NCBI GenBank assembly: GCA_051878395.1
Contig: JBJEKB010000252.1
Location: forward strand, 429 to 41,827
From: Muribaculaceae bacterium
GTDB taxonomy: Bacteria; Bacteroidota; Bacteroidia; Bacteroidales; Muribaculaceae
Direction of reading: 5' to 3'
DNA length: 41,399 nucleotides
Numbering within the stretch: position 1 is the stretch's first letter; each line of letters begins with the position of its first letter. The position numbers were made by a program, and so were the translations under genes. Shown here in pieces: positions 6,068 to 38,565 of the stretch. The notes beneath the pieces were generated by a model. It was not told the DNA's origin. It saw only the letters and a program-made list of their open reading frames with translations, and made no database searches.

Positions 6068-6077
6068 TGCAACCGGC

Positions 6078-7268: not shown

Positions 7269-7356
7269 ATTGAGTTGCTTATTCTTGTAAATAAAACTAA
7301 AAAATCGGGCTTTTATTGTGCTCTCGATGCAATTTATTTCTCATTTTATCGTTTAA

Positions 7357-8781: not shown

Positions 8782-8794
8782 AACCAACATGCAT

Positions 8795-8823
8795 CTGCGC
8801 CCGATTCCGGCGCAGTTTATTTT
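8795..8823 (+). terminator. Rho-independent terminator after the flippase gene
   Basis: A 7-bp GC stem (ctgcgcc pairing with ggcgcag) followed by tttatttt. It overlaps the stop of the convergent GT4 gene. Confidence 0.65.
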
Positions 8824-9923: not shown

Positions 9924-9925
9924 AT

Positions 9926-11524: not shown

Positions 11525-11536
11525 ATCTTTATGTTT

Positions 11537-12808: not shown

Positions 12809-12830
12809 TGCAAGATACGAGACGCAGGGA

Positions 12831-13634: not shown

Positions 13635-13714
13635 ATCCAATTGATTTATCAAGTGCCTTATAATTAATAACGCATCTTGAGCACAATTATTATATATGGT
13701 GTGCGCCTAAATTG

Positions 13715-14713
13715 CTATTTGAGTCCAAATAATGTTTTGGTGATGGAATATTTCTTGAACACCTTTTCGTTGAGGAGAATCGGGATGAGCACTCCACAAG
13801 CCACAACAATAGCGGCGCCGGTCGCAAATATGAGGCTGTCGCCGATGTTGTTCAAATAGGGCATCTTGAAGAGTAGAGCCTTGGCAAAGCCCTCGAATGT
13901 GGTGTGAAACAGGTAAATTATGTAGGATGAGGAGGATATAGTCATCAACCACCCTATCCGGGTACTCGATTTCTCTATCATTCTCGACAGCGCGATTATG
14001 GCGGCTATGCCGAGGTAGGGCAACAACAACCGTGCTCCGGCAGCCAAATAACCGCCTCCAAAAGAGGGACCTGAAACGCTTATCGAGTAGGCTATGGCAA
14101 AAGCCGCTATAAATGCCCATTCCGGCACTCTTTTCACCCCGGAAATCGCCTCCCTCCAATCATACAAAACCACTCCCGACATGAAGAACAGGAGCATATC
14201 CTTGAAGGAAGAGATGCAAAACAGCTCTGTTGTCGTGAACGGAATATAGTGAATGAAAATCGACACAAAGAATAGCAACAATCTCTGCTCCTTGGTCTTA
14301 AATAGCGGAACAAGGACAAACATCCACCATAGCGCCCATATAAACCAGAGGAAAAATCCGGCTTCGGGATAGTAGAACATCTTTACATAGGAGAACAAAG
14401 TAACCGGATTCTCGACATAAGCGTATCTCTCGGTGAGAAGTTTGATTGAAATAACTATCACGGAAACAGTGAAATATGGCACCATGAGGCGCTTTACCTT
14501 CTTGATTATGAAGTCGCCGTAGTTCTCGCCGGCTCGCTTGGTTGCGATATACACAAATCCGCTTGCAAACATAAACAGCGGCATGTGGAAGGAATATATA
14601 AAATCGCACACAGAGCGCCACCACGCGGGATGTCCCGGAGGACAATAGTGCCCGATGACAACTAAGATGATGCAAATCGCTTTTGCGATGTCGATATATA
14701 CAATTCTATTCAT
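13715..14713 (-). CDS. Membrane acyltransferase family 3 (probable polysaccharide O-acetyltransferase)
   Basis: 332 aa with about 10 TM helices and N-terminal IDIAKAICIILVVIGHY, typical of Acyl_transf_3. Confidence 0.8.
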   Translation of the reverse strand: MNRIVYIDIAKAICIILVVIGHYCPPGHPAWWRSVCDFIYSFHMPLFMFASGFVYIATKRAGENYGDFIIKKVKRLMVPYFTVSVIVISIKLLTERYAYVENPVTLFSYVKMFYYPEAGFFLWFIWALWWMFVLVPLFKTKEQRLLLFFVSIFIHYIPFTTTELFCISSFKDMLLFFMSGVVLYDWREAISGVKRVPEWAFIAAFAIAYSISVSGPSFGGGYLAAGARLLLPYLGIAAIIALSRMIEKSSTRIGWLMTISSSSYIIYLFHTTFEGFAKALLFKMPYLNNIGDSLIFATGAAIVVACGVLIPILLNEKVFKKYSITKTLFGLK

Positions 14714-15183
14714 TTTCGGCTGATTGGTTCAATTATATAACGCTGAAATGCCTCAAATAGTACTCGAGGCTGAGAGCGATTGCAAAATTAGTAAAAGTGT
14801 TTGACCGGGCAATCTTTAGTGGCATAAAAAGTGTGATTTCGGGCGAAAACGGGGGCGAAACAATATGTTAACAAATACGAAAATTGATGTTTAATCTATA
14901 ATTGCGATAAAACATATTTCAAAAAAATTTTTTAGTTAGAAAATTATTTATAGATTTGTAGATAATTTGCTGTGTAGAACACAGAATGTTAACGGGTTAA
15001 GTTAAAAGAGTTAATTCACAATTTGATAAAGGACATCATAATGCTTAAAACAACTATTATTAATAATGTGTAGTGTGAGGCATGATGCTTTTGGTGAAAT
15101 AAACGGCTTTTAGACCTCGCAACAACTGAGATACATGGCAAAACCCAAAAAGTAACCTTGAATATAAACAAATAAAATTAATT

Positions 15184-18100
15184 ATGAGAAAACAGTTATT
15201 GCTTCTGTTATTTTCGTTCTTTGCGGTGGTGGGTTTCGCCCGCCCTGTAACGGGTGTTGTAACTTCGCAATCCGACGGCGAGCCGATTATCGGTGCCTCG
15301 GTTATGGTGAAGGGCTCAACAGTCGGAACAGTTACCGACTTCGACGGAAATTACTCAATTGAAATCAAAGACGACAATGCCGTCTTGGTTTTCACTTATG
15401 TTGGTATGGAGCCTGCGACTGTAAAAGTCGGGAATCGTACTAAAATCGATGTGGTGATGAAAGAAAACGCCACAGTGTTGAACGAAGTGGTTGTAACAGC
15501 CATGGGACAGGTTCAGGAGAAAAAGAAATTGAACTTTGCCGTTCAATCTCTGAACTCCGACGATGTAACCGCAGGTAGCACCGCAAACGTGGTCAACAGC
15601 CTTCAAGGTAAGGTTGCCGGCTTGCAGGTGTCGATGACCGGTGGTTCGCCGAACTCATCTTCCCAGGTGATTATCCGCGCCATTTCTTCGGTAAACAACT
15701 CGCAAAGCAACGAGCCGTTGATGATTGTCGATGGTGTTGCAGTGCGCGGTAAGGGTTCGTCGCTCAGCGATATCAACCCCAACGACATCGAGAGCATGAC
15801 AGTGCTCAAGGGAGCTGCCGCTTCCGCCCTCTACGGTCAGGAGGCTGCCAACGGTGTAATCATGATTACTACCAAGAGCGCACAAAACGGCAAAATCCAA
15901 GTGAGCGCAAATGCCACATGGGAGATTTCCAACTCGGTGCGCATCCCGAAAATCCAAAACACATTTGCTGCCGGTTCTTCCGGTTTCTACAAAGAAAACA
16001 GTGTTGGCGGATGGGGTCCTTACCTCCGTCCCGGCGAACAAACCTACGACAACGTGGGTGATTTCCTCGGCACAGGCTTCTTGCAGAAATACGATGTGTC
16101 GTTGAGCGGTGGTACAGACAAATTCTCTTCCTACGCTTCGGCTGCTTACATGAGAAACGAAGGTGTGGTTGACAAAGACTACAAGGAACAAATCAACGTG
16201 TTTGTTAAGGGTAACTTCCAGCCATCACAACAGGTGAAGGCTCAAATCTCTGCCAACATCATCAACACCAAGGGTCGCGGTTTCGGCAACGCCATGTCAA
16301 CTATCTACGGATGGTCTATCAACAAGAATATGAGCGACTACCAGACCGAAGACGGTATGCCCAACTGGTCAAACCGCTACGACAACTGGGACGCACTCTC
16401 CGGTAAAGAGAAAATCGGTGCCACTTTGTCGCCCTACTTCGGCCGCTACAACGACTATTCTCTCACCGAGAGCACTCGTTTCATGATCAACGGTAATGTG
16501 TCCTACGAGCCTATCAAAAACCTCGTGTTCACAGGTAAAATCGGTTACGACCGCGGCTACACCACCTACGACAGCTACACCGTGTCGCGCTACACCAAGG
16601 ATGACTTCATCAACCCCGAGACAGGCGGCTACTACGACTACGCTTCCGACTATGTGTATCGCTTCGGTGCCTACACATTCCAGCCTTCGCGCGGCGAGCA
16701 ATTCACTGCTCAATTCCTCGCTACCTACGCCCACGAGTTCGGTGATTTCAACCTCAACCTCCTCTACGGTATGGAATACAAGGAAAACAGCAGCTACGAG
16801 GCTCAACTCGCAGGTCAAGACTTTGAATTGGGTGGCGGATACTACAGCTTCAACAATGTTGACCCCTCTTACTTCACAAAATCGGGCTCAAGCAGCTACA
16901 ACTTGTATCTCTATCACACAAAATATAACAAGTATGGCTACTTCGGCGAAATCCGCCTCGACTACCGCGGCATGGCTCAACTCTCTGTTACAGGCCGCTA
17001 CGATGGCTCTTCTCGCTTGAAACAAGTAGATTGCACCTACTTCTATCCTTCTGTAACCGGTGGTCTTATCTTCTCCGAGTTGTTCAACCTCAAGAACGAC
17101 TGGTTCTCTTATGGTAAGATTCGCGGTAACTGGGCTAAAGTGGGTAAAGACTGCCCCGCCAACTTGTTTACCAACACATTCAAACAATGGTCAACATTCC
17201 CCGACGGCGGTTATGGTATCGACCCGACTACTTCGCGCGCCATCCAACTCGAGCCTGAGATGACTTCTTCTTGGGAAATCGGTGCCGACTTGCGTTTCTT
17301 CAACCAACGCACTCGCTTGGATATCGCTTACTACTCTACAGTGGTTGACAACCAGATTGTGAGTGTGCGCGTTTCGCCTGCTTCGGGCACTATCCTCCAA
17401 ACTCGCAACGAGGGTAAGATTGAAAACTACGGTGTTGAGGCAACTTTGAGCCAAGACATCCTCAAGGGCGGCGACTTCTCTTGGACTGCTTTCGCCAACT
17501 TCTCTTTCAACCGCGGTCGCGTGCTCTCATTGCCCGACGGTATCACTGAAATCCAAGGTGGACAATACGGCGACATCTTCGCCAGCGCATTCCTCAACGG
17601 TTCTACTACCGCTATCACAGGTAAGGACTATCAACGCACCCCGAGCGGCGATGTTATCATCGACGAAAACGGCTATCCCGTTATCAGCCCCAACAAGCAG
17701 AACCTCATCGGTAACCGCGAGCCCGACTTCCTCCTCGGCTTAGGCTCTAACTTCAACTGGAAGAACCTCTCGGTTTCGTTCCTCGTTGACGGCCGCTGCG
17801 GTGGCGACGTTGTAAACGTAACAGGTCGCGGTCTTATCTCCAACGGTCAGCACCACCTCTACTCTAAATACCGCAACCGCGAGTATGTATTCAATGGTGT
17901 AGTGGCACAAGCCGACGGCTCTTACGCTCCCAACACTCAACCGGTAATCCTCGACCAATACACAGTTAACAACTATATTTATGGTGTATCTTCCAACTTC
18001 ATCGAGGATGGCTCTTACATCCGCTTGAGCTATGTAACTGTAGGCTACGACTTCTCAAGCCTTCTCAAGCAAGGCTGCCCGGTTAAGGGTCTCAGCGCAA

Positions 18101-18258
18101 GCCTCACAGGTCGCAACCTCTTCCTCCTCACCAAATACTCGGGCAGCGACCCGCAAATCATGTCGGGTGTGTCGGGTGGTACAGGTTCGATGGGTATCGA
18201 CAACTACAGCGTACCTCAAACACGCAGTTTCAATTTAACATTAAAAGCAACATTCTAA
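15184..18258 (+). CDS. SusC/RagA-family TonB-dependent outer-membrane transporter
   Basis: Signal peptide; carboxypeptidase-regulatory-like domain (GVVTSQSDGEPIIGASVMVKGSTVGTVTDFDGNYSI); plug region (EVVVTAMGQ); barrel ending TLKATF. There is no N-terminal STN/anti-sigma signalling extension. Confidence 0.95.
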   Translation: MRKQLLLLLFSFFAVVGFARPVTGVVTSQSDGEPIIGASVMVKGSTVGTVTDFDGNYSIEIKDDNAVLVFTYVGMEPATVKVGNRTKIDVVMKENATVLNEVVVTAMGQVQEKKKLNFAVQSLNSDDVTAGSTANVVNSLQGKVAGLQVSMTGGSPNSSSQVIIRAISSVNNSQSNEPLMIVDGVAVRGKGSSLSDINPNDIESMTVLKGAAASALYGQEAANGVIMITTKSAQNGKIQVSANATWEISNSVRIPKIQNTFAAGSSGFYKENSVGGWGPYLRPGEQTYDNVGDFLGTGFLQKYDVSLSGGTDKFSSYASAAYMRNEGVVDKDYKEQINVFVKGNFQPSQQVKAQISANIINTKGRGFGNAMSTIYGWSINKNMSDYQTEDGMPNWSNRYDNWDALSGKEKIGATLSPYFGRYNDYSLTESTRFMINGNVSYEPIKNLVFTGKIGYDRGYTTYDSYTVSRYTKDDFINPETGGYYDYASDYVYRFGAYTFQPSRGEQFTAQFLATYAHEFGDFNLNLLYGMEYKENSSYEAQLAGQDFELGGGYYSFNNVDPSYFTKSGSSSYNLYLYHTKYNKYGYFGEIRLDYRGMAQLSVTGRYDGSSRLKQVDCTYFYPSVTGGLIFSELFNLKNDWFSYGKIRGNWAKVGKDCPANLFTNTFKQWSTFPDGGYGIDPTTSRAIQLEPEMTSSWEIGADLRFFNQRTRLDIAYYSTVVDNQIVSVRVSPASGTILQTRNEGKIENYGVEATLSQDILKGGDFSWTAFANFSFNRGRVLSLPDGITEIQGGQYGDIFASAFLNGSTTAITGKDYQRTPSGDVIIDENGYPVISPNKQNLIGNREPDFLLGLGSNFNWKNLSVSFLVDGRCGGDVVNVTGRGLISNGQHHLYSKYRNREYVFNGVVAQADGSYAPNTQPVILDQYTVNNYIYGVSSNFIEDGSYIRLSYVTVGYDFSSLLKQGCPVKGLSASLTGRNLFLLTKYSGSDPQIMSGVSGGTGSMGIDNYSVPQTRSFNLTLKATF

Positions 18259-18268
18259 ACACCGGAAT

Positions 18269-20161
18269 ATGAAAAAGATTAAAATTGCAGCACTTGCGTT
18301 GCTTGCCGGATTGTCGCTCGGTTCATGCACCGATGTGCTGTTCGATAACGTAAATCCCGACAAGGCGCACGACATCACCGCCAAAGACGGTCTGCCGGTA
18401 GTGGTGTTCTACGCTCAGCAACAAGTGTATGACTACTCGGAATACTATATCTACCTCTCGCAATGCCTCACCACAGGCGGCAAGAGTTCGATTGGCTCTT
18501 ATTCTTATAAGAGTGAGTGGGAATTCCTCACTATGAACCGTCACCCGCAATGGCGCCGCCACTTCTACGATGTCGGTGTCAATGCCAAGAACCTCATCGA
18601 AAATGCTGCCAAAATCAATTCGCCAAACTATGAATTGATTGCACGCACAATCAAATTGATGTCAACTCAGTTGTGTACCGACAACTTCGGCGATATGCCG
18701 CAAACCGAAGCCTACCAGAGCAACTCGCCTAAGTATGACACTCAGGCAAGCATCTACGCTTGGATGCTCCAAGAATGCGACGACCTCATCGCCATGTATG
18801 AGGACGACGCCGTAGTGAATTGCCCCACCAACCAAGACATCTCGGCTCTCGACCGCGTGTATCACGGCGACCTCAGCAAGTGGAAAGGACTCGTGTATGC
18901 TATGAAGGCTCGTATCCTCCTGCGCAACATCCCGAATATCGACCGCAGCAGCGCCATGTGCGACAAAATCATCGCTGCCGCCGACGCTGCCATCAATCAA
19001 TGGCGCTCGGGCGACCTCCTCTACGGCGCTTGGTTTGGTAACGAACCGCGTTACAAATTCGATGGCGGCACAAACGAGCAAAACGCCCCCTGGAGCGAGG
19101 CTCAGCCTATCATCAACTCTTGGGAATCGCGTAAAAATATGCTCGACTCGGCTATCCCGTCGAAATTCTTCATGATCGACTGCCTCGGTCTCCTCGAGCC
19201 GGACAGCGAATCGAAATGCGGTCAGTACCAAAACTACCAGGGCTATGCCAACGACCCCCGCGCGTCGCTCCTCATGCAAGCCCAAAACGGTCCGCTCTCG
19301 GCTACTTCGACCAACACCGTGTATAAGCTCCGCTACCTCGACAACAACATCGGTATGGGTTCGTCGTTCAAATCGACCAACTACCCGAAACTCCACTGGG
19401 GCGCTTACGCAGGCGGCAAGGATGCCTACAACCCTATCTTCACTATGGAGGAACTCTACTTCATCAAGGCTGAGGCTCTCTACTGGAAGAACGACAAGGT
19501 GCAGGCTTGCGAACTCGCTAAAGAGGCTACTAAATGGAACATCCAACGTCATCTCGACGACTTCCTCGCTCGCAACCCCAACCCCGTGGTCAACACTTCC
19601 ACCAACAACATCTATCCCGGTGGTGTAGGTGCTTCGGGCATCGTTTATGAGCAGGAAAAATACTGGAACGCTCAACTCGCCGCTTTCTTTGAAAATGAGG
19701 AACTATATTCAACCGGTTCTCGTCCTCGCCTCCTCGTGGCTAAGGCTTCCGACAAGGGTAACAAGCACTATTTCTTCAACGAAACAGAATACACCCTCTA
19801 CGACCTCATGACTCAGAAGTATATCGCTATGTACATGCAGCCCGAGCAGTGGACCGACCTCCGTCGCTACCACTACAGCAACAAGCGCAACAACTACGGT
19901 ATCGGCGAAAACCAGGAAATCGTTTACCCCAACCTCCGTCGTCCTTACAACCTCTACGCTCCTTATTGGATCGATGGTCTCACCGAGACTGAGAAGGAAA
20001 ACACCTGGATTCAACGCATCAACTACGACCCCGAAACAGAGGAAAAATACAACCGCGCGGAACTTGAACGCCTCGGCGCTTACAAGAACTACAAGTGGTT
20101 GCGCGTGCCTATGATTTGGGCGCAAGACTATGGTGTTCGTTCATCTTTAACCGAAGAATAA
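18269..20161 (+). CDS. SusD/RagB-family nutrient-binding outer-membrane lipoprotein
   Basis: Lipobox LSLGSC. The gene starts 10 nt after the SusC homologue and encodes 630 aa rich in helical W/Y residues, typical of SusD-like proteins. Confidence 0.85.
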   Translation: MKKIKIAALALLAGLSLGSCTDVLFDNVNPDKAHDITAKDGLPVVVFYAQQQVYDYSEYYIYLSQCLTTGGKSSIGSYSYKSEWEFLTMNRHPQWRRHFYDVGVNAKNLIENAAKINSPNYELIARTIKLMSTQLCTDNFGDMPQTEAYQSNSPKYDTQASIYAWMLQECDDLIAMYEDDAVVNCPTNQDISALDRVYHGDLSKWKGLVYAMKARILLRNIPNIDRSSAMCDKIIAAADAAINQWRSGDLLYGAWFGNEPRYKFDGGTNEQNAPWSEAQPIINSWESRKNMLDSAIPSKFFMIDCLGLLEPDSESKCGQYQNYQGYANDPRASLLMQAQNGPLSATSTNTVYKLRYLDNNIGMGSSFKSTNYPKLHWGAYAGGKDAYNPIFTMEELYFIKAEALYWKNDKVQACELAKEATKWNIQRHLDDFLARNPNPVVNTSTNNIYPGGVGASGIVYEQEKYWNAQLAAFFENEELYSTGSRPRLLVAKASDKGNKHYFFNETEYTLYDLMTQKYIAMYMQPEQWTDLRRYHYSNKRNNYGIGENQEIVYPNLRRPYNLYAPYWIDGLTETEKENTWIQRINYDPETEEKYNRAELERLGAYKNYKWLRVPMIWAQDYGVRSSLTEE

Positions 20162-20180
20162 CAATTAAAAGAGAAACAAT

Positions 20181-21335
20181 ATGAAACTTTTAAATAAAAT
20201 AGGTGTAGTTGCCCTTGCCGCCGGTGCCATGACTTCGTGTGCTGTACACGACGTGTTTGATGACAATGGCGATCTCGGTCAGATTCTTCCCACTGTGTCG
20301 TGGGAACTTGGTAGCACCACTTGCAAGGCAGGCAACGACGCAACATTCAAAGCCAAATATTACTACAAGGGCAAGGACGACATGATCGACCACACCGAAG
20401 TGTGGGCGCTCATCGCTCGCACCGAAAGTGCAGCCGCAACTTGCAAACTCACCACTGCGCTCAGCTACACGCAGACTGTCGGAGTCTCCGACACCGTCCG
20501 CACTATGAGCCTCATGAAAACTTTTGAGCACAAGTCTCTCCAATGGAATGTTCAAAAGACCGTCGCCGATTTCAACAAGGTGTATGCCGAGGATGGCGTG
20601 TGGGAAGATGAAGGTGGAAAGTACAACAGCGACTACCACATCGACATGACAAACGGTTACGAGTATATCCTCACCGCTTCGTTCCCCACATCGGCTACTC
20701 TCGCTCCCGTGAGTTGGGTGAACCCCACTACTTTCGACAGCGACCGCTTCGATGCCCTCTATCCCGCTTCGTTCAAGAGCGATTTCGTTGCCAAGGTGGT
20801 TGACTATCTCACCAAAGACAGCGCTTACTACAACGACCTCCGCAACGTGTATGTCAACTACGACTTCACCGCCGAGCGTTTCGCCGAAGTGGCTCAGGCT
20901 CACAGCCTCAACTTCCCCACCGAAACCGAAGCCGGCAAGAAGAGCGACCTCTGGTACACCGACACCAAGAAGGTGGTGGGCAAATACTACATCACTGTGG
21001 AAAACGGCGTTACTTACTATCACGAAGTGGCTCTCGACTACGAGGCTCCCGAAGGCATCAACCTCTATGATGTCTATGACTCATCGGAATGGGTGTTCTG
21101 CCGCTACAGCGACGACACCGGTTCGATTCTCACCTCTGTGCGCGCCAAATACATGCCCCTGTTCATCGACTTGTTGAACGGTATCCCGTTTGAAGACTGG
21201 ATCTACAACTCTGCCGACCAGAACTACAGCATCAACTTCAGCCGCGACTATCGTCTCGTGCCTCTCTTCAAGGCTGTCGATGTCAACGGCAAAGTGGGCG
21301 TTACCACCAACGATAAGGAAATCTCCTTGAACTAA
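20181..21335 (+). CDS. Hypothetical surface lipoprotein (SusE/F-position, possible glycan-binding protein)
   Basis: Lipobox AMTSC. It sits 19 nt after the SusD homologue. I recognise no domain. Confidence 0.6.
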   Translation: MKLLNKIGVVALAAGAMTSCAVHDVFDDNGDLGQILPTVSWELGSTTCKAGNDATFKAKYYYKGKDDMIDHTEVWALIARTESAAATCKLTTALSYTQTVGVSDTVRTMSLMKTFEHKSLQWNVQKTVADFNKVYAEDGVWEDEGGKYNSDYHIDMTNGYEYILTASFPTSATLAPVSWVNPTTFDSDRFDALYPASFKSDFVAKVVDYLTKDSAYYNDLRNVYVNYDFTAERFAEVAQAHSLNFPTETEAGKKSDLWYTDTKKVVGKYYITVENGVTYYHEVALDYEAPEGINLYDVYDSSEWVFCRYSDDTGSILTSVRAKYMPLFIDLLNGIPFEDWIYNSADQNYSINFSRDYRLVPLFKAVDVNGKVGVTTNDKEISLN

Positions 21336-21355
21336 TCTTTAAATCAAAAAATGTT

Positions 21356-23068
21356 ATGAAACTTATCAAGAATATATCGCTAATGGTGTTGATGCTCATG
21401 GCTATGGTGGCTTGCGTTGAAAAGACCCCCGACTATGGCAACTTCCCCACAAAAGATGTCGATTTCACCTACAATGTCGATGGCGATGAGTTCCTCACCG
21501 ACTTCTATGTGGTGTCGAAAATCCAATTCAACAACACTTCCTCGAAATCGGGAGCGGTTACTTGGGATTTCGGCGATGGTGAAACTTCCACCGAGCCAAA
21601 CCCTGTGCACAAATACAAACAGGCTGGCGTGTATAAGGTTACTATGTCTCTCGCCGGCGTGGGCGAGCGCACCTACCCCATCATGATCTACGACATCGCT
21701 CCGGTGCTCTCCGTGGCAAGCCAGAGCGCTACTCCTGTCGTTATCAACGATGTTACCGTTGAACTCAGCATCTTCCTCCCCAACCCCGAAAACCTCAAGT
21801 GCCGCTACGAGTGGACTTTCCCCGAAGGTACTGCTAAGGAAGATGGAACTATTATCACTTCTTGGACCGGCTATTCTCACGAAGACGGCACTATCGACTA
21901 CCCCGGCAAACTCAAATTCAAGAACATCGGTTCGCAGAAAATCGAAATCAAGACTTGGTTTGACACCGAGGGCGAAAACCGCCGCCTCGAAGACAGCTAC
22001 GTCAATGTGCAAGTGGGTAGCTCTTATCCTTGCAAGACTCTCTACTACGCTCAAGTGGATGGCAATATCAAAGCCTACAAGCTCGTTGACCTCACTCGCC
22101 TCCCCGAAGGCACCAAGAACTACCCCTTCGATATGGGTGTGAAGAGCGGCTCTATGCCTCAAAACCTTGTGTATGCTCGCTACAAAGAGTCTAACAAGGA
22201 GGAGACTACCGACTTCATCTACATCCTCGACTGCGGTAAGCAATACACCTACATCAACGACGAGGCAGGCAACCTCGGTGATGGCAAAATCACCGTTATG
22301 AATGCCGACGCTTCGGTGGTTGACCTCTGCGTTACCAATGTGGGCAAGACTGCCTTCAACGACCCGTTCCAAGGCTGGGCTGATGAGGAAACTCTCTACT
22401 ACACCGACCGTAACACCGGTATCCGCCGCATTCCTCTCGCTACTCGCGGTCAGGTTGAGCCGAGCGACTACCTCGTGCAAAACAACTGGATTGGCTACTA
22501 CAACAAGGGTATCGCCTATGGTGCCATCCATGTGGGTCACTATCGCGACAAGAACGGCATGTGGTATTGGGGCAAGTCTTATTCGGGCAACGGTATCTAC
22601 CGCTTCCAGAATTCCGACATCCAAGAGGGTATGGACTACAACAAGGTGGCTTCTCCCCATCCTGTGCTCTTCTCGGGTACAAACCCGCGCAGCTTCTGCA
22701 TCGACGAAAAGCACAATCGCATGATTGTTTATTTCCGCTCGCCTGCCGACATCGCCGGTATCGGCACCTACAATATCCCCGGATATGACGAGACTCTCGA
22801 TGCCAAAGCCAACCGCATCAAATACTTGGCTCTCGAAGCCGACCCGATCAACAAAACCGCCGACGAAGGTGTGTGGATTCCGCAACTCGCGCTCGATTCT
22901 GCTACCGGCTACGTTTATTTCGGTTTCAACGCTGCTTCGGGCTTCACTACCTTCTCTACCGGTCTCAAAGTGTTTGACCCGGAGACAGGTGCTATCTCAA
23001 GCGTATATGGCAACACCGACAAGGTGTATGGCGTTGCTGTGTGCGACACCGAAACTGAATTGTTCTAA
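21356..23068 (+). CDS. Lipoprotein with an N-terminal PKD domain and a beta-propeller-like C-terminal region
   Basis: Lipobox-like MAMVAC; PKD signature VTWDFGDGETSTEPNPVHKYKQAGVYKVTM; the C-terminal ~350 aa shows repeated strand-turn patterns. Confidence 0.65.
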   Translation: MKLIKNISLMVLMLMAMVACVEKTPDYGNFPTKDVDFTYNVDGDEFLTDFYVVSKIQFNNTSSKSGAVTWDFGDGETSTEPNPVHKYKQAGVYKVTMSLAGVGERTYPIMIYDIAPVLSVASQSATPVVINDVTVELSIFLPNPENLKCRYEWTFPEGTAKEDGTIITSWTGYSHEDGTIDYPGKLKFKNIGSQKIEIKTWFDTEGENRRLEDSYVNVQVGSSYPCKTLYYAQVDGNIKAYKLVDLTRLPEGTKNYPFDMGVKSGSMPQNLVYARYKESNKEETTDFIYILDCGKQYTYINDEAGNLGDGKITVMNADASVVDLCVTNVGKTAFNDPFQGWADEETLYYTDRNTGIRRIPLATRGQVEPSDYLVQNNWIGYYNKGIAYGAIHVGHYRDKNGMWYWGKSYSGNGIYRFQNSDIQEGMDYNKVASPHPVLFSGTNPRSFCIDEKHNRMIVYFRSPADIAGIGTYNIPGYDETLDAKANRIKYLALEADPINKTADEGVWIPQLALDSATGYVYFGFNAASGFTTFSTGLKVFDPETGAISSVYGNTDKVYGVAVCDTETELF

Positions 23069-23094
23069 CACACGATTATCAGTATAACCCATCA

Positions 23095-23138
23095 AGAGCG
23101 GCAGGCGACTCCCGGAGCCGTTGCCGCTCTTCTAATTT
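23095..23138 (+). terminator. Possible internal attenuator/terminator hairpin between the PKD lipoprotein and GHL10 genes
   Basis: A 9-bp stem (agagcggca 23095-23103 pairing with tgccgctct 23122-23130) followed by a weak T tract (tctaattt). Confidence 0.35.
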
Positions 23139-23148
23139 AAAACAACTT

Positions 23149-25752
23149 ATGAAGAAATTTTTCACTTTTTCGATGATTCTTGCCGCTGTGCTCTCGATGT
23201 GGGCTGAGCGCTACGAGCATCGTGCAATTTTCAACACCTCGATGCTCAGCGACTGGCCTTACAAGGACCTCACCGAGGCGAATGCCGAGGATCAGCGCGC
23301 TGCCGGCATCAAAATGCTCGACTCGATTGCCGCCAACAACTTCACAACGGTCTATTTCCATGTGCGCGCTATGTGCGATGCCTATTATGAGTCGAGCTAC
23401 GAGCCCTACGCCGCCGGTCTCGCCGGTGCGCGCGGCAAGGCTCCGGCTTTCGACCCCCTCGCGTTCATCATCGACGAGGGCCACAAGCGCGGTATCGAAA
23501 TCTACGCCTGGGTGAACCCATTCCGCTACAGCAACAGCCCCGACAAGAACAGCTACGGCGAGTCGCAGCTTAACTACGAGACCACTCACCCCGAATGGCT
23601 CATCTCGAATGCCAACCAAACTATCCTCAACCCTGCCCTCCCCGAGGCGCGCCAGCGCGTTATCGACGTGTGCACCGAGATTGCCACTAAATACGACATC
23701 GACGGCATCGCGTTCGACGACTATTTCTACCCGCAAGGGGGCATGGCTACCGATGCCTCTGCCGACGACTACCCGCAGTTTGCCGCCACAGGTCGCCCGT
23801 TGAGCGAATATGGCGATTGGCGCCGCGAGAATGTCAATAGTTTTGTAGCCGAGTTTGGCAAGGCTATCAAGGCGGTGAAGCCGTGGCTCCGTTTCGGCAT
23901 CTCTCCCGCCGGAGTGTGTGGCACTGCCAACACTTCCGCCGGAAAATATGGCGTGAAACCGAGTCCGGGCAGCGACTGGCAATACAACCAAATCTATTGC
24001 GACCCGCTCAACTGGATTGTCAACGGCACCGTGGATTTCCTCTCGCCGCAACTCTACGACCACACCGGCTACGGCTCGGTGGCTATCTGGTACTACTACA
24101 TCGCCAAGAAATTCGACCGCCACATCTATCCGGCGCAGTCGATTGTGGCTTATCCCAATGTCGAAGATTTCGACCAAATCCTCGATGAGATTGGTCTCAC
24201 TCGCAACTACAGCACTCACCACGCTCCCGGCTATGTGTTCTTCCCCTGGATTAACCTCTTCAACGCCTCCAAGACGGTGGACCGCGTGAAGGTGCGCCTC
24301 ACAAGCACTCTCCGCACTCACCTCTACACCAACAAGAGTTGGACCCCGTCTATGTCGTGGGAATCGTGGGGCGATGTGCCGATGCCTTCGCAAGTGGCGT
24401 TCGACGGCACCACTCTCACCTGGAAAGGCGCTTCCAATGTGCGCTACATCGTCTATGCGTTCCCCAAAACGCTCGATAAATCGAAATTCGAGCACCAGGA
24501 GTATTATATCAAGGCTGTAACCTACACCGAAAGCTACACTCCCGATGCCGAAACAGCGGCTAACTGCAACTTTGCCGTTGCCACTCTCGACCGCTACGGC
24601 CACGAGAGTAGCGCGCTCATGGTGGGCGAGTCGCTCGGAAAAGCCCCGGATGTTACACTCTACCGCCATACCGCCGGCGAGAAGGTGCAAGGCTTCTTCC
24701 ACCTCCGCTGGACAAGCGACGCTCGCCGTTTCGTTATCGAAATAGCCCGCGACAAGGATTTCACTCAACCGGTGTATAGCAATATGACCACCGACAAGTA
24801 TATCCCATCCACTTTGCTCCCCTCTATCCCCGACGGCACTCAGCTCTATTGGCGTGTCCGCGCTATGGAAGCCAACTGCGCCGACACCTACAGCGCTGTG
24901 GGCAATTGTGAATTTGCTCGTCTCCAATACACCTACCCCACTGCCACAAGCGGTGCGGTGAAAATCGGCGACAAGTTCACTTGGGACGCTGCCGAGGCGA
25001 CAATCTACAACGTGAAAGTGTCGGAGAGCATCGACATGAGCAACCCGGTTATCGACGCTGAAGTTATGGGCGGCGAATACACGCTCCCCGAAACCGCTCT
25101 CGTCTCGGGTGCCACCTACTACGCCCAACTCAACATCGACGCCGGCGGTGAAATCATCGAAAGCGACCCGTTGCCGTTCACAATGGAGTATATCGGCGCT
25201 TCCGTGCCCGAATTCGTTACTCCCGCAGTGGATGGAGCAACCATTTTCGGCGACAACGCCATCGTGCTCAACGAGCAGAAGGGTGCATCGCAATTCCGCG
25301 TGGAGATTAGCGCAAGCGAGTCGTTCCCGCCTCGCACCAGCGGCATCTACACCCTCCCGGCATTCAACTATTCCACCAAGAATCTCTCGGAATTGACAAA
25401 ACCGGCGTTTACACAAGGCACCACCTACTATGTGCGTGCGCGCGCCACCTATATCAACGAGACAGGCGGCACCATCACCACCGATTTCTCGCCGGTGCGC
25501 ACATTTGTCTATGGCGGCGAATCGGGTGTTGAAGACGTTTCAGCCGATGGAATCCGTGTCGAAGGTCGCACACTTGTGATTCCGACACCGCAAGATGTCA
25601 AGATGGTAGAGGTATATACCGCAGCAGGTGCGCTTGTCGGCACAATCGATGTCAAAGGCACACGCACCGAGCTCGACAACCTCCCGCAAGGCGTATCCCT
25701 CATCAAGGTAGTAACCGCCGGCGGCACCAAAGTGATAAAGATGGCAAGATAG
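23149..25752 (+). CDS. GHL10 (glycoside-hydrolase-like 10, UPF0748/YddW-DigH family) protein with three Ig-like modules and a T9SS C-terminal sorting domain
   Basis: Signal peptide; TIM-barrel motifs HKRGIEIYAWVNPFR, DGIAFDDYFYP, RFGISPAG and FLSPQLY; three modules ending YWRVRA, YYAQL and YYVRARA; C-terminal KMVEVYTAAGALVGTIDV...GVSLIKVVTAGGTKVIKMAR resembles a Por secretion tail. Confidence 0.8.
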   Translation: MKKFFTFSMILAAVLSMWAERYEHRAIFNTSMLSDWPYKDLTEANAEDQRAAGIKMLDSIAANNFTTVYFHVRAMCDAYYESSYEPYAAGLAGARGKAPAFDPLAFIIDEGHKRGIEIYAWVNPFRYSNSPDKNSYGESQLNYETTHPEWLISNANQTILNPALPEARQRVIDVCTEIATKYDIDGIAFDDYFYPQGGMATDASADDYPQFAATGRPLSEYGDWRRENVNSFVAEFGKAIKAVKPWLRFGISPAGVCGTANTSAGKYGVKPSPGSDWQYNQIYCDPLNWIVNGTVDFLSPQLYDHTGYGSVAIWYYYIAKKFDRHIYPAQSIVAYPNVEDFDQILDEIGLTRNYSTHHAPGYVFFPWINLFNASKTVDRVKVRLTSTLRTHLYTNKSWTPSMSWESWGDVPMPSQVAFDGTTLTWKGASNVRYIVYAFPKTLDKSKFEHQEYYIKAVTYTESYTPDAETAANCNFAVATLDRYGHESSALMVGESLGKAPDVTLYRHTAGEKVQGFFHLRWTSDARRFVIEIARDKDFTQPVYSNMTTDKYIPSTLLPSIPDGTQLYWRVRAMEANCADTYSAVGNCEFARLQYTYPTATSGAVKIGDKFTWDAAEATIYNVKVSESIDMSNPVIDAEVMGGEYTLPETALVSGATYYAQLNIDAGGEIIESDPLPFTMEYIGASVPEFVTPAVDGATIFGDNAIVLNEQKGASQFRVEISASESFPPRTSGIYTLPAFNYSTKNLSELTKPAFTQGTTYYVRARATYINETGGTITTDFSPVRTFVYGGESGVEDVSADGIRVEGRTLVIPTPQDVKMVEVYTAAGALVGTIDVKGTRTELDNLPQGVSLIKVVTAGGTKVIKMAR

Positions 25753-25769: not shown

Positions 25770-25797
25770 AGAGGCTGCCCCCGCAGCCTCTTTTTTG
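25770..25797 (+). terminator. Rho-independent terminator ending the SusC/SusD locus
   Basis: A 9-bp stem (agaggctgc pairing with gcagcctct) with loop cccc, then tttttt. Confidence 0.8.
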
Positions 25798-30969: not shown

Positions 30970-30977
30970 TATATTTG
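30970..30977 (+). promoter_or_regulatory. Candidate -7 box (TATATTTG) for the second GHL10 gene
   Basis: Matches TAnnTTTG, 51 nt upstream of the ATG at 31029. Only a partial -33 (ATTG at 30944-30947) is present. Confidence 0.35.
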
Positions 30978-31028: not shown

Positions 31029-34000
31029 ATGCAAAAACGACTATTTTCTATCGCGATAGCGATATTATGTCTCCTTGTCGCTCTGCCGGCAAGTGCAGCC
31101 TTCACGAAGCGCGAATTCCGCGGCTCATGGATTTCCAACGCTTGGGCTCTCGACTGGCCTTCCGTAAGAGGAACTTCCTCCGATGAGATTGAACAACAGA
31201 AAGCAGAATTAATCCAGTATCTCAATGATTTGCAGGGTTATGGCTTTAATGTGGCATTCTTTCAAGTGCGCTCCATGTGCGACGCCGCTTATCCTTCGAG
31301 CTACGCTCCTTGGACAAGTTATGTTTCGGGAACACGTGGTGTAGATCCCGGTTGGGACCCACTCGGTTTTGCTGTAGAAGAGGCTCACAAGCGCGGTATC
31401 GAACTCCATGCATGGCTCAACCCTTATCGTTGGGCAAACTCTGACGACCTTTCTTTTTGGAGCACAAATTATGATACTGCATGGAAGAATGCCGGTTACC
31501 TTATTACATCAACATCGAGCAGTATAACATCTCTTGACCCCGGGAATTCTAAAGTTATTGAGCATATAGTCAATGTTGTCAAAGAAATCTGCACCAACTA
31601 TAAGGTTGACGGCATTGTATTTGACGACTACTTCTATCCCAACTACTATGACAAAGATGCATCAACAGCAACTAAGAACCAATATCGCGCCAACGTGAAC
31701 AAGATGGTGGAATCGGTTTACAATGCCGTTAAAGACACCCGTCCCGAGGCTCGTTTCGGCATCTCGCCGGCAGGCGTTGCGTATTGGGGTGCAAGTGCCG
31801 TTGGCGTTGACTACTCTGCCATAATAGAAAAAGAGGCATCAGACTGGCAATACGATGCGCTCTATAGCGACCCATTGGCTTGGCTCGCAGCAGGCAATAT
31901 CGACTATATCTCTCCGCAAATATATTGGAACACCAACAATAGCAAAAATCCATTCGGAACTATCACAACTTGGTGGAATGGCGTGGCTGAAAAATTTGGT
32001 CGCCACCATTTCCCCAGCCACAACTGTGCAGAACAATTTGCTGCTGACAATTCCTACACTATGTGGCAAGAATTTGAAAAACAAATCAATTACACTCGTG
32101 CTTCGAGCAACACCCCCGGAGCGGTGATGTATCGTCAAACACAAATCGGTTTGCCTTTAACCACCAGCGAAGGCGTAACTTGGTATGGATTTCAGCACTT
32201 CCTTAAAGTATGGGTTTTCAACAAGCCCGCTCTTGCGCCCGAGGTTACTTGGCGCAACACCGGCAAGACCTACACCACCGTTCAAAACTTGAGCCTTTCG
32301 GGCAGCACACTCTCCTGGAGCAGCGCCGCACAAGGCAACGAAGTGCTCAAATACACCGTTTATGCTATTCCAAACTCATTGACCTATGAGGATGTACTCA
32401 CTACCGATGGCATCAGCAATACATATCTCCAAGGCATCACTTACAATACATCTTTCGATGTAATCTCCGGCGATTACTGGTATGCAGTGTGCATCCTCGA
32501 TGGTCTCAGCCACGAATACGAGCCTCAATTCCTCGGTGTTGCAGAGAGCGAAAACACCACTCTCACCTCGCCTGTCAATGGCGCGGTTGCCTACGGCAAA
32601 TTCACTTGGGCTGCCGTTGACAATGCCACTTACACTCTCGAAATCTCCGCTTCGAGCGACTTCTCGTCGATAGCTCTCTCGCAATCGGGCATCACCACCA
32701 ACTCCGCCACCATCAGCCTCTCCTCGCTCCTCTCAAGCAGCACTTATTATTGGAGAGTGAAGACTCGCCAAACCGGCACAACCGAGGTTGTGAGCGATGT
32801 GGCATCTTTCACCACTCCCGCATACAGCCCCGAGCAAATGGATGAGGCAATCTACTCATCAAATGGCAGCATGGAGTTTGAAAACCTCTGGATGCGCAAG
32901 GGAGATGGCAATCTCGACAATTTCACCCCCAACTACAACTTCTGCCGCGACATGGCGCTCGACAAAGACTACATGTACATCATCTGCCGCGAAAGCAATT
33001 CCGCCACATCGGCATGCTACATCGAGAAATACGACATCAACACCGGCGAGAAGCGAGGCACGCTCAACATCTCATTCCCCGAGAGCAGCATCAGTTACTT
33101 CCCTGCCAACAATATCTTCCTCGACGATGCAGGAAATGTGTGCGTGTCAAACCTCACCTTAGATTGCAGCACCTCTCCGCTACTCATCCATAGCATCGAC
33201 ATGACCACCGGCGTAGCCACTTTGCGCGCAAGCATTGCAACAAACGATGTTGTGCGCTTCGACCACTGCGATGTGCTTGGCGATGTAGTAGCCGGCGATT
33301 TCTATGTGTTTGCCGCAACCTCGTATGTCGCCAATTCGGAAGTTCCGATGTATATATATCGCTGGTACTATGAGAATGGCGAGAGAGTCGTAAACAATAG
33401 CTACAAAGGCACGCCTGCGGCTTACGTTCCCTCGTCAGCAACACATTTCGGTGCTGCGCCGCGCATCAAGGCTATAACAAAAGACAAAGTGATTGTCGAT
33501 GGCCAAACAACCGCACTGACACAGTACGACATCTCTATATCCGCTCCGACAGCAACCTCGTTTGCCGATGCAAACCTCTTGCCGTCAACCTACAACACCA
33601 ATGGATTCGACTGGTTCAAACTCGATGTCAACGATGTGATTGTGTATAACTTTGCCGACTATTCCAACGGCATCAAATTCAACACCGCAATCACCGGCAG
33701 CGTTGAGACCGATTTTGGCACAGCTGTGCAACTCGGCGACTGGACATTCCCGCGCGAGGGATTAGGTAGCGCAAATTCGGCTAACTATACCGCCGAGGTT
33801 GACCACTACTCGATAAGCGACACCGAGGTGCTCGTGGGCGTTTATGCCACCGGCAACGGCATGGGTGTGTATCGCATCAAGAAAACCAAGGATATCGGCA
33901 CCGGAATCGACGACGCGCTGCTCGACGCACTCACATTGGTGAAATCGGGCTGCACCATCACCCTGAGCCGCCCCGCAGCGAGGGTTGAAATCTACAACAT

Positions 34001-34127
34001 GGCAGGCGCCAAGGTTGCCGAGAAGCAGAATGTGGCTTCGTTCAGCACCTATCTCCAGCCGGGAGCCTACATCATCCGAGCAATCGACAACAGCGGCAAC
34101 ATCGCCACCAAAACCATCATCTTTTAG
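31029..34127 (+). CDS. GHL10-family protein (paralogue of 23149-25752) with an Ig-like module, a propeller-like module and a T9SS C-terminal sorting domain
   Basis: Signal peptide; HKRGIELHAWLNPYR, DGIVFDDYFYP, RFGISPAG and YISPQIY align with the other GHL10 gene; a module ending YYWRVKT; C-terminal VEIYNMAGAKVAEKQN...GAYIIRAIDNSGNIATKTIIF. Confidence 0.8.
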   Translation: MQKRLFSIAIAILCLLVALPASAAFTKREFRGSWISNAWALDWPSVRGTSSDEIEQQKAELIQYLNDLQGYGFNVAFFQVRSMCDAAYPSSYAPWTSYVSGTRGVDPGWDPLGFAVEEAHKRGIELHAWLNPYRWANSDDLSFWSTNYDTAWKNAGYLITSTSSSITSLDPGNSKVIEHIVNVVKEICTNYKVDGIVFDDYFYPNYYDKDASTATKNQYRANVNKMVESVYNAVKDTRPEARFGISPAGVAYWGASAVGVDYSAIIEKEASDWQYDALYSDPLAWLAAGNIDYISPQIYWNTNNSKNPFGTITTWWNGVAEKFGRHHFPSHNCAEQFAADNSYTMWQEFEKQINYTRASSNTPGAVMYRQTQIGLPLTTSEGVTWYGFQHFLKVWVFNKPALAPEVTWRNTGKTYTTVQNLSLSGSTLSWSSAAQGNEVLKYTVYAIPNSLTYEDVLTTDGISNTYLQGITYNTSFDVISGDYWYAVCILDGLSHEYEPQFLGVAESENTTLTSPVNGAVAYGKFTWAAVDNATYTLEISASSDFSSIALSQSGITTNSATISLSSLLSSSTYYWRVKTRQTGTTEVVSDVASFTTPAYSPEQMDEAIYSSNGSMEFENLWMRKGDGNLDNFTPNYNFCRDMALDKDYMYIICRESNSATSACYIEKYDINTGEKRGTLNISFPESSISYFPANNIFLDDAGNVCVSNLTLDCSTSPLLIHSIDMTTGVATLRASIATNDVVRFDHCDVLGDVVAGDFYVFAATSYVANSEVPMYIYRWYYENGERVVNNSYKGTPAAYVPSSATHFGAAPRIKAITKDKVIVDGQTTALTQYDISISAPTATSFADANLLPSTYNTNGFDWFKLDVNDVIVYNFADYSNGIKFNTAITGSVETDFGTAVQLGDWTFPREGLGSANSANYTAEVDHYSISDTEVLVGVYATGNGMGVYRIKKTKDIGTGIDDALLDALTLVKSGCTITLSRPAARVEIYNMAGAKVAEKQNVASFSTYLQPGAYIIRAIDNSGNIATKTIIF

Positions 34128-35145: not shown

Positions 35146-36600
35146 TTAGAGGATTACTTTTTCAACTACTGCGTTACCGTTTACGTTTGCTTTAACGATG
35201 TAAGCACCTGCAGCGGGAGTAGCAACTTGTGAAGCGTTGGCTTCAACAACTTTTTGACCTGCCATGTTGTAAACTTCGATGCTTGTAGCTTCGTTAACCG
35301 AAATCATACCGTTGGCAACAACTACGTTTACGTTGTTTGCTTCGATACCTTCAACACCTGCAGATTCCAAATCAAAGCCATCTTCTGCGATAAGATATAC
35401 ACCAAGACCTGCGAAAGATTTAGCAGTGAGGAGGTAGCAACCTTCTTTACCGTCTTTGTCGGTAAGTTTTTGAGTGTAGATAGCGTGGAAACGGTTACCG
35501 GCATCAGATACGAGTTCAGGGTTCATACCGTTAGCAGGGATTAACCAAACGCGCTCCATGCCTGTGAATGCCATGTCGGCACCAACCTCGTTGAAAGAGA
35601 TTTCGTTACCACCATTGCTACCGGTGTGTTGGTGGTTGGCAACAGCGATGAACTTACGACCTTTGATAGCAACTTCGGCGATACCGTTGGCACCTGCTTC
35701 AGGAGCGAGATCAACAGCATTTTCGAAAGAATCGATAACGGCACCCCATGAGTCATAAAGGATAGGAGCAGCGGTGAAACCGTCAACGTAGAAGAGTTCG
35801 CCGGCAAATTGGAGGTCGCCTTCACCCATCACGATCTTAATCGCAGGAGCATAGTTCCACATTGTGATACCACCTTCTTCGGGTTCGTTGATATAGAAAC
35901 TCTTTATTTCATAAGCAACTGAGCCTTCGAAACCACCTTTCCATTCAGTAGCGCCTTTGGCGAGTTCCCAACGATATACCCAACCTCCATCTTGTGCAGC
36001 GGCTGCCATGATGATAGCATTGGCTTCAGTACCTGTGATATCACCAATTACATCGAAATAGTCGATACGAGCGTTGTGTTCGCGAGGAAGAGTGGCAAAC
36101 AATGTGAGAGCACCTGTTTCGGTATCTACTGTGTAAGCTTTAACAGGAGTCAACGGGCTTTCTTCGCTAACTTCGGTTTGAGCGAAAGTGGCACCAATGA
36201 TAAGGATGTGACCGAAACTATCGACGATTACGTTGTTGGCGCAAAGAGTACCTTCGAGGGGAGCACCATCAATTGTGAGAGTGAGTTCTTCACCGATTTG
36301 AGCACCAGTCAAAGCGTCAAATTTGAGGAGTTTACCAACAGCATTTGGAGAACCTGCGAAATAAACAACACCATTGGATAGAGTTGCAGTACGGTAGTTC
36401 TTACCTGTAGCTGCGTCACCGAGAGGAGAAGCAACGTAAGCATCGTTGTCGTGGCAACGGTCGAAAATCCAAAGGTTTTTACAAGTGAGAGTTACATCGT
36501 TCTTGGTAGAAGGTGCATAAGTTTGACCATCTTGAACGGCTGCAAATGCGCTTGATGCTGCCATCAAGGCTGTTGCGCAAAGGAGTAAACTTTTCTTCAT
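35146..36600 (-). CDS. Secreted propeller-like protein with a T9SS C-terminal sorting domain; stand-alone paralogue of the C-terminal half of the 31029-34127 product
   Basis: Signal peptide MKKSLLLCATALMAASSAFA. Blocks align with the 1032-aa protein (NLW, KFDALTG vs KYDINTG, CANNVIVD vs PANNIFLD, VYRW vs IYRW, GLGVY vs GMGVY). C-terminal tail IEVYNMAGQKVVEANA...GAYIVKANVNGNAVVEKVIL. Confidence 0.8.
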   Translation of the reverse strand: MKKSLLLCATALMAASSAFAAVQDGQTYAPSTKNDVTLTCKNLWIFDRCHDNDAYVASPLGDAATGKNYRTATLSNGVVYFAGSPNAVGKLLKFDALTGAQIGEELTLTIDGAPLEGTLCANNVIVDSFGHILIIGATFAQTEVSEESPLTPVKAYTVDTETGALTLFATLPREHNARIDYFDVIGDITGTEANAIIMAAAAQDGGWVYRWELAKGATEWKGGFEGSVAYEIKSFYINEPEEGGITMWNYAPAIKIVMGEGDLQFAGELFYVDGFTAAPILYDSWGAVIDSFENAVDLAPEAGANGIAEVAIKGRKFIAVANHQHTGSNGGNEISFNEVGADMAFTGMERVWLIPANGMNPELVSDAGNRFHAIYTQKLTDKDGKEGCYLLTAKSFAGLGVYLIAEDGFDLESAGVEGIEANNVNVVVANGMISVNEATSIEVYNMAGQKVVEANASQVATPAAGAYIVKANVNGNAVVEKVIL

Positions 36601-38556: not shown

Positions 38557-38565
38557 TTGAACGAT

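Follow-up and report, generated by a model that had tools for sequence, protein, structure and literature searches.

A conserved SusC/SusD operon of Muribaculaceae with a GHL10 protein predicted to be type IX secretion cargo: a candidate locus for wall glycan uptake

What does a SusC/SusD import operon take up when the only enzyme candidate that it encodes is a member of family GHL10 (PF02638)? The question is raised by a 41-kb stretch of DNA from a Muribaculaceae bacterium (contig JBJEKB010000252.1), hereafter the window, in which five genes at 15184-25752 encode a SusC-like transporter, a SusD-like lipoprotein, two further lipoproteins and a GHL10 protein that we call GHL10a. Muribaculaceae are abundant in the guts of rodents, ruminants and humans, and the prediction of polysaccharide utilization loci (PULs) from carbohydrate-active enzymes (CAZymes) ignores most Muribaculaceae SusC/D loci that lack CAZymes. 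The operon described here is a real, conserved and uncharacterised PUL-type variant, not a new kind of system. An initial annotation, made from the letters of the window, had already recognised an uncharacterised Sus-like locus, and literature searches found no paper that defines its substrate. Its further proposal, that GHL10 feeds the import of bacterial cell-wall glycan or another polymer, was too centred on GHL10; peptidoglycan as the substrate is plausible and unproven. Gene order, family membership, conserved linkage, export signals and predicted folds are reported below as observed. Taken together with the genes that accompany its relatives, they suggest that the locus is probably a PUL for wall glycan.

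The operon and its conserved core

The five open reading frames (ORFs) lie in one direction on the plus strand, at exactly the coordinates first given for them. They are separated by 10, 19, 20 and 80 nt, in agreement with the gaps of 10-80 nt in the initial annotation, and the strong terminator said to close the unit is found at 25770..25797 (+), where a hairpin (25770-25791) with a 9-bp stem, 6 G-C pairs and a 4-nt loop is followed by TTTTTT. Upstream, a 470-nt AT-rich spacer separates SusC from a divergent acyltransferase gene. The spacer contains a candidate Bacteroidota -7 promoter motif, TAGATTTG (14951..14958, +), which lies 226 nt 5' of the SusC start codon and is a consensus match only, from a search with the pattern TAnnTTTG. 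Rfam and tRNA scans of the window returned no regulatory RNA and no tRNA.

The first gene (15184..18258, +) encodes a SusC/RagA-type TonB-dependent transporter of 1024 aa, which matches TIGR04056 at 650 bits, carries the TIGR04057 signature and has CarbopepD_reg_2 and Plug domains. The lack of an STN domain that had been ascribed to it is borne out, there being no STN match at E<=0.01. The SusD-like lipoprotein (630 aa; 18269..20161, +), likewise as first described, has lipobox LGSC and matches PF12771 (E 1e-20) and PF12741 (E 3e-15). Judged by these profile matches, both family identities are firm, and the adjacency of a susC-like and a susD-like gene in one unit, 10 nt apart, is that of a PUL. 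A linked degradative enzyme of a CAZy family is missing from the operon, where GHL10 alone is present, and the window ORFs to which Pfam was applied include no dedicated regulator of the hybrid two-component system (HTCS), SusR or extracytoplasmic function (ECF)/anti-sigma type. That the locus has neither a classical CAZyme nor a regulator had been remarked before; for degradative CAZymes and regulators it is true of the whole window, glycosyltransferases occurring within an upstream biosynthesis cluster. SusC/D loci without an STN domain or an adjacent regulator are not unusual.

The third and fourth genes encode lipoproteins with a lipobox at Cys20, which the initial annotation took to be of unknown function, one with a PKD domain and a propeller-like region. 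Lip1 (384 aa; 20181..21335, +), presumably a surface glycan-binding protein, has no Pfam or NCBIfam family match and belongs to an unnamed family of 194 homologues, in which all source names shown are hypothetical proteins of Muribaculaceae. Its AlphaFold2 (AF2) model (predicted local distance difference test, pLDDT, 87.5) comprises a beta-sandwich that is followed by a helical bundle and then by another beta domain, and a Foldseek search of the PDB gave no real fold match (template modelling score, TM, <= 0.14). The second lipoprotein (570 aa; 21356..23068, +; PKD_4, E 3.5e-11), hereafter the PKD protein, presumably captures ligand. Its model (pLDDT 87.1) has two Ig/PKD domains and a beta-propeller, and its Foldseek matches in the PDB were generic YWTD, Kelch and TolB propellers together with Bacteroides BT1487 and the lipoprotein BtuG, with no glycoside hydrolase/polysaccharide lyase (GH/PL), glycosidase or lyase family. 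On the evidence of these AF2 models and of Foldseek against the PDB alone, which assigned neither protein to a known GH/PL family, hidden GH/PL activity of either lipoprotein was rejected. The most fitting interpretation of both is that they capture ligand for the transporter. They resemble SusE/F-type proteins in having a lipoprotein signal, a position downstream of susD and a fold of binding type that matches no catalytic family, the binding itself being predicted.

Relatives of the locus were collected by scanning one genome per species with an alignment of the PKD lipoprotein. The query family occurs in at least 143 species-level genomes, which are named Muribaculaceae wherever the title is that specific, and the nearest named homologues come from Muribaculaceae metagenome-assembled genomes (MAGs). 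The best 80 loci, all of them from MAGs and mostly of rumen, gut or faecal origin, were kept and analysed both by searching them with the five window proteins (tblastn) and by clustering of all flanking ORFs. Neighbours directly after the core were counted in the 67 loci with enough flank, those directly before SusC in 54 loci, and accessory genes in the 46 loci that were fully flanked. By both analyses the core SusC-SusD-Lip1-PKD is present in 80 of the 80 loci, and Lip1 keeps its place between SusD and the PKD gene. Identity to the window proteins is typically 60-80% for SusC, 55-74% for SusD, about 59% for the PKD protein, about 48% for Lip1 and about 37% for GHL10a. In the closest public genome (locus L007, SFER01000086.1), the SusD match falls into two pieces at 6970-8803 and departs from the window by 58 bp near 19537-19596, owing either to misassembly or to disruption of the SusD gene.

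The genes around the core vary. A GHL10 gene directly follows it in 46 of the 67 loci, and a long GHL10 gene directly precedes SusC in 15 of the 54. Among the 46 fully flanked loci, GHL10 is found in 33 and a NAGPA phosphodiester glycosidase also in 33, often as 2-4 tandem copies. The commonest accessory family (39/46), of about 460 aa, will be referred to as U; GH20 (17/46) and CotH (16/46) are less frequent, and C10/S8 peptidases also occur. The invariant part of the locus is SusC-SusD-Lip1-PKD, and GHL10 is an accessory gene, not the defining enzyme. The system centred on GHL10 that was first proposed stands in so far as GHL10a lies in the operon and is a genuine family member; it does not fit the invariance of the core or the 13 of 46 fully flanked loci that have no GHL10 within 10 kb of it. 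Similarly, the statement that there is no classical CAZyme holds within the window and fails for the relatives, which bring GH20 and, as further candidates, NAGPA, CotH and the C10/S8 peptidases. GH20 lies just upstream of SusC, is of the chitobiase type and has a signal peptide of the signal peptidase I (SPI) type with no sorting tail; it is probably a periplasmic enzyme. The other accessory proteins carry at their end a tail for the type IX secretion system (T9SS), in place of which many rumen lineages have a type I dockerin. In one relative, L003, an ECF sigma factor, a DUF6249 gene and two small ORFs occupy 479-1504, some 600 nt before a SusC without STN; this sigma factor is the sole regulator candidate observed near any version of the locus.

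Full-length loci have the order GH20, SusC, SusD, Lip1, PKD, GHL10, CotH, U, U, NAGPA. By comparison with it, the window holds a trimmed version, in which the helpers that remain, 5-10 kb downstream, are a GHL10-U fusion and a free U protein. The five genes first listed are correct, and these two members had been missed. The fusion, GHL10b (1032 aa; 31029..34127, +; PF02638, E 1.9e-45), consists of a GHL10 barrel, an FN3-like module, a U domain and a T9SS C-terminal domain (CTD), and is of the same type as the long GHL10 found before SusC in relatives. It shares 29% identity with GHL10a over 621 aa, and the U family has its homologue in the C-terminal half (U domain at 32880-34127, +), connecting GHL10 with the commonest accessory family. 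A TAnnTTTG motif is also found near it, at 30970-30977. The free member, U484 (484 aa; 35146..36600, -), has a domain of ~400 aa and a T9SS CTD and clusters with the proteins of 440-500 aa that come after the core in relatives. The U family is small, with 211 representative clusters (50% identity) in 1.84 billion proteins, and, apart from the dockerin or CTD tails, it had no match in Pfam, in profile searching of the PDB or in an hhalign comparison with the PKD propeller. In the nine long members scanned, U is fused to LRR_5 (BspA type), Big_2, CHB_HEX_C_1/Fn3_assoc, VWA_2 and FGE-sulfatase-type domains, and these mostly adhesion or binding partners suggest that it may be a binding module rather than a catalytic one.

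Such variability raises the possibility that GHL10 is a mere frequent neighbour, GHL10a being co-transcribed and separable, while the core imports its ligand uncleaved or obtains it from other proteins, with U family members, NAGPA or peptidases producing or capturing it. The loci without GHL10 are what this explanation would predict, as is the steadier occurrence of U; GHL10 also diverges much faster than the core (about 37% identity against 59-70%), and several GHL10+CTD paralogues exist elsewhere in the genome. One such paralogue, a third GHL10 protein with a Por tail (1140 aa), is encoded on two same-species contigs (L088, 1-2874; L090, 1-2835), ~10 kb past the right end of the window and YchF, after an arginine biosynthesis operon, which brings the secreted GHL10+CTD paralogues to at least three in ~45 kb of genome. 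We consider the explanation unlikely in view of the same-strand position of GHL10 in the operon in 46/67 loci, or directly upstream in 15/54, of the fusion that ties it to the most constant accessory family and of the fact that, in the window, GHL10a is the sole enzyme candidate within a unit bounded by a terminator.

GHL10a and its sorting tail

GHL10a (867 aa; 23149..25752, +) begins with a signal peptide of the SPI type, continues with a GHL10 TIM barrel (aa 27-374) and FN3/Ig-like modules and ends in a putative T9SS type A CTD. All three TIM-barrel motifs quoted in the initial annotation are found in its translation. The three Ig-like modules also ascribed to it are weakly suggested, by internal similarity and by cross-matches to one module of a paralogue. 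The match to PF02638 is strong (E 2.4e-49; 168.6 bits, the cut-off being 27.9), the crystallised domain of Clostridioides difficile Cwp19 (PDB 5oq2) matches residues 27-374 at E 1e-50, and Escherichia coli DigH (YddW) is 29% identical (E 2e-46). With the DDY, NPxR, SPAG and PQxY positions conserved, the alignments identify GHL10a as a bona fide GHL10 family member.

The putative active site of Cwp19 comprises W127, R132, D195, D196, Y197, S250, Q295 and Y297 (PMC5765458). GHL10a D190, D191 and Y192 correspond to Cwp19 D195, D196 and Y197, and GHL10a R126 to Cwp19 R132. In an alignment of 69 sequences, made up of the GHL10 proteins of the loci and DigH and read at a conservation cut-off of 97%, the GHL10a positions W121, R126, D190, D191, Y192, P253-A254-G255, Q301 and Y303 are conserved in 67-69 of the 69. 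The counterpart of Cwp19 S250 is the Ser of the GHL10a ISPAG motif, which falls below the cut-off, P253-A254-G255 being present in 69/69. Loss of the acidic catalytic residues, which would have spoken against an active enzyme, is not seen; they are intact. DigH had been named as the only studied GHL10 protein, which is incorrect, Cwp19 having both a crystal structure and lytic transglycosylase activity (PMC5765458, PMC6016235). Cwp19 exerts that activity on peptidoglycan (PMC6016235), and DigH is a glycosyl hydrolase of denuded glycan strands at the septum (PMC12288456). A relationship to the GH156 sialidases was considered and rejected, since only the fold is common to them and Cwp19 and the active site differs (PMC6811678). 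Literature searches found no paper that assigns GHL10 to a CAZy family.

The C-terminal tail of GHL10a scores 19.5 bits against TIGR04183 (cut-off 23 bits) when the whole protein is searched and 23.7 bits when the last 99 aa are searched alone. GHL10b and U484 exceed the cut-off, at 29.0 and 27.3 bits, and the GHL10a tail aligns with their CTDs and has motifs in common with them. There are no T9SS components in the window. As a putative export signal, the tail suggests an extracellular site of action for GHL10a.

In many rumen and gut Muribaculaceae orthologues, a type I dockerin (PF00404) replaces the T9SS CTD at the same end of the protein. The exchange affects GHL10, the U family, NAGPA, C10 and S8 peptidases, CotH and GH13, the dockerin being sometimes N-terminal, and is seen in loci within L011-L086 (for instance L016 11834-21015, L041 11813-20784 and L020 741-18363) and in the homologues P0016, P0018 and P0044. 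The pattern suggests that, within this family of Bacteroidales, the module for surface sorting has been exchanged across whole lineages. Because orthologues in other lineages have a dockerin there, the C-terminal end of GHL10a may be read as a sorting or anchoring module.

Like Cwp19 and DigH, GHL10a belongs to a single catalytic family with conserved active-site positions. These two enzymes act on the wall of the cell that makes them, Cwp19 as an S-layer-anchored autolysin and DigH as a periplasmic enzyme of the divisome, whereas GHL10a has FN3-like modules, a T9SS tail predicting export past the outer membrane and the context of an uptake operon. A self-directed role would have GHL10a trim the exopolysaccharide (EPS) of its own cell or, like DigH at the septum (PMC12288456), the cell's own wall, with SusC/D as unrelated neighbours. 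An EPS/capsule cluster does lie immediately upstream (5306-14713), and GH-like enzymes are common in EPS operons. We regard such a role as extremely unlikely. The EPS cluster is divergent from the operon and occurs in the same-species L007 only, other relatives having different upstream genes; across the 80 loci GHL10 is linked with SusC/D and not with EPS genes; and the T9SS tail would direct the enzyme beyond the outer membrane, away from its own peptidoglycan. A GHL10a placed there by its tail would therefore not play the part of DigH on its own wall but act on external material.

The substrate

The organisation of the locus follows that of classical Bacteroides PULs such as the Sus, levan and dextran utilisomes, in which SusC/SusD are followed by surface lipoproteins in one operon and a surface enzyme is combined with an importer. 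The window differs from them in having no CAZy degradative enzyme and no HTCS, SusR or ECF regulator, and in that the enzyme is predicted to be T9SS cargo and not a lipoprotein. For the combination of a T9SS enzyme with a PUL there is a precedent in the chitin locus of Flavobacterium johnsoniae, where T9SS-secreted ChiA feeds SusC/D pairs and a GH20 is present. That locus has a T9SS-exported endo-enzyme for a beta-linked N-acetylhexosamine (HexNAc) polymer, as is predicted for the window locus; both have SusC/D with surface lipoproteins of presumed or known binding function, and the relatives of the window locus add a probably periplasmic GH20. Here the endo-enzyme would be GHL10 and not GH18, the window lacks GH20 and a regulator, and the accessory NAGPA, U and CotH have no counterpart there.

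Bacteroides thetaiotaomicron BT0446-BT0449 include two genes annotated as family 10 glycosylhydrolases and a calcineurin-like phosphoesterase, beside the SusD/SusC genes BT0451-BT0452 (PMC10434189). By annotation, then, the block BT0439-BT0453 resembles the Muribaculaceae loci in having GHL10 genes in a SusC/D operon, paired with a phosphoesterase-type enzyme; its companions are different (DUF5009, DUF4855 and GH89). Because of this block, a GHL10 gene in a Sus-like operon is not unprecedented at the level of annotation, and nothing else relevant was found in literature searches for a GHL10-PUL. Nor did such searches find a PUL directed at peptidoglycan, or a SusC/D-type system by which Bacteroidetes take up MurNAc or fragments of peptidoglycan. 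Bacteroides are not known to have a T9SS, so the B. thetaiotaomicron enzymes are not expected to be T9SS cargo.

The reading that we put forward tentatively, with confidence a little below even, is a Sus-like, PUL-type uptake of an extracellular HexNAc-based wall glycan with peptidoglycan strands as the substrate. We infer the surface location of GHL10a, its coupling to import and the substrate itself. GHL10a would be exported by Sec and then by type IX secretion, and be held on the surface or released from it, where it would be unable to reach the cell's own periplasmic wall. With its active site of the Cwp19/DigH type it would cut an external polymer to oligosaccharides, fragments of which would be captured by Lip1, the PKD/propeller protein and SusD and imported by SusC with TonB-derived energy. 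In relatives, the periplasmic GH20 hexosaminidase would trim terminal HexNAc, and secreted NAGPA, U-family proteins, CotH and peptidases could help to strip or bind the substrate. A HexNAc-based wall polymer is suggested because the solid GHL10 biochemistry is on peptidoglycan, GH20 is of the chitobiase type and NAGPA acts on N-acetylglucosamine (GlcNAc)-1-phosphodiesters, which are its substrate. A cut by a muramidase or lytic transglycosylase leaves GlcNAc at the non-reducing end; we infer that GH20 would remove the non-reducing GlcNAc left by a GHL10-type cut. The phosphodiester glycosidase could detach wall polymers that are joined to N-acetylmuramic acid (MurNAc) via GlcNAc-1-phosphate.

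The same PUL logic could apply to another microbial surface polymer, one rich in HexNAc and/or sugar-1-phosphate diesters, with GHL10 as its endo-enzyme; wall teichoic acid or secondary cell-wall polymers, capsule, poly-N-acetylglucosamine (PNAG) and fungal chitin are candidates. NAGPA is as frequent as GHL10 and is often repeated in tandem, and bacterial NAGPA domains are predicted to target phosphodiester sugars linked to the cell wall (10.1101/2025.01.14.632903). The phosphoesterase that adjoins the B. thetaiotaomicron GHL10 genes (PMC10434189) and the chitobiase type of GH20 point the same way, and GHL10a also matches, weakly, GHL13 and the equivalog model of PgaB, the nearest structural neighbour of Cwp19 (PMC5765458). 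We nonetheless rate a polymer other than peptidoglycan as somewhat unlikely, given that both GHL10 enzymes with solid biochemistry cut peptidoglycan (PMC6016235, PMC12288456) and that the window has neither NAGPA nor GH20.

Uptake of an alpha-glucan like starch or glycogen, with an amylase-like GHL10, appears very unlikely. Neighbours of the GH13 family are rare (3-5 of ~80 loci), GH20 and NAGPA dominate, and GHL10a retains the motif set of Cwp19 and DigH. The argument for an alpha-glucan is that DogH, a GHL10 protein of Deinococcus, has been reported to turn soluble starch into maltose (PMC9967864), that GH13 genes with carbohydrate-binding modules CBM48 or CBM26 lie near the core in L001, L005, L020 and L058, and that in four loci a SusE/F-like protein is encoded between GH20 and SusC. 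DogH is very distant, with a reported 21% sequence similarity to Cwp19 (PMC9967864).

Several observations weigh against peptidoglycan import and have to be set beside the evidence for it. The substrate range of GHL10 is poorly known, as the claim of starch hydrolysis for the Deinococcus enzyme illustrates (PMC9967864), and GH13 amylases or a SusE/F-like protein do lie near a few of the loci. No gene specific to the further processing of peptidoglycan (amidase, MurQ, AnmK, NagZ or AmpG/MurT) was seen in the window or in the recurrent neighbours. GHL10 is absent from the surroundings of the core in the 13 loci mentioned above, and with at least three GHL10+CTD paralogues in ~45 kb its adjacency to the core could partly reflect abundance.

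Read jointly, the genes of all the loci would describe the first recognisable peptidoglycan or cell-wall utilization locus of Bacteroidota, Muribaculaceae-wide in at least 143 species-level genomes and composed almost entirely of non-CAZy families (GHL10, NAGPA, the U domain, CotH and two new lipoprotein families), which would dismantle the walls of other bacteria. Its enzymes would be T9SS-sorted or dockerin-tagged according to lineage; NAGPA would uncover the strands at the GlcNAc-1-phosphate linkage, GHL10 would cut the glycan and SusC/D would import the pieces. Taken as a whole, this extended account is possible and rather doubtful. If correct, it would represent a route of necromass or prey recycling in gut and rumen.

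The orphan class to which the window locus belongs is large, comprising at least 143 species-level genomes. Hardly any biochemistry exists for its enzyme families, and B. thetaiotaomicron, a model organism, has an unexplained counterpart. The candidate substrate is testable and ecologically important. If it is peptidoglycan or another wall polymer, the locus would reveal the means by which a major gut lineage exploits microbial necromass, would be relevant to how immunoactive muropeptides are supplied in the gut and would provide functions for GHL10, bacterial NAGPA and three unnamed protein families. With any other substrate, it would offer a tractable unit of five genes for the de-orphaning of GHL10.

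Neighbouring genes in the window

The EPS/capsule biosynthesis cluster upstream of the operon (5306-14713) is mostly on the minus strand, with the Wzx gene on the plus strand, and encodes GT2, GT4, Wzx, GT1, Wzz, a 441-aa protein of no family, Wza/Poly_export and Acyl_transf_3. As a part of the system it was rejected, being conserved in L007 alone among the related loci. Between the operon and GHL10b are five minus-strand genes that are not glycan-related, encoding an AAA-ATPase/PD-(D/E)XK protein, EamA, an RsmD-like methyltransferase, DUF3822 and a hypothetical protein. The first of these (AAA-ATPase_like/PD-(D/E)XK, PF09820+PF08011; 25825-27549) is missing from L007, which is 91-95% identical and in which the EamA gene directly follows GHL10. 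Because it is missing from so close a relative, the gene appears to be a strain-level insertion or deletion.

Across the window, GC skew follows the coding strand, being negative at plus-strand genes (15-26 kb, 31-35 kb) and positive at minus-strand genes. The ~2 kb at 36600-38560 consist of short overlapping ORFs of 120-170 aa on both strands with no family matches. The skew there is positive, as in minus-strand coding regions, and in the same-species contigs the gene calls at this place have lengths of 138, 82-136 and 147 aa.

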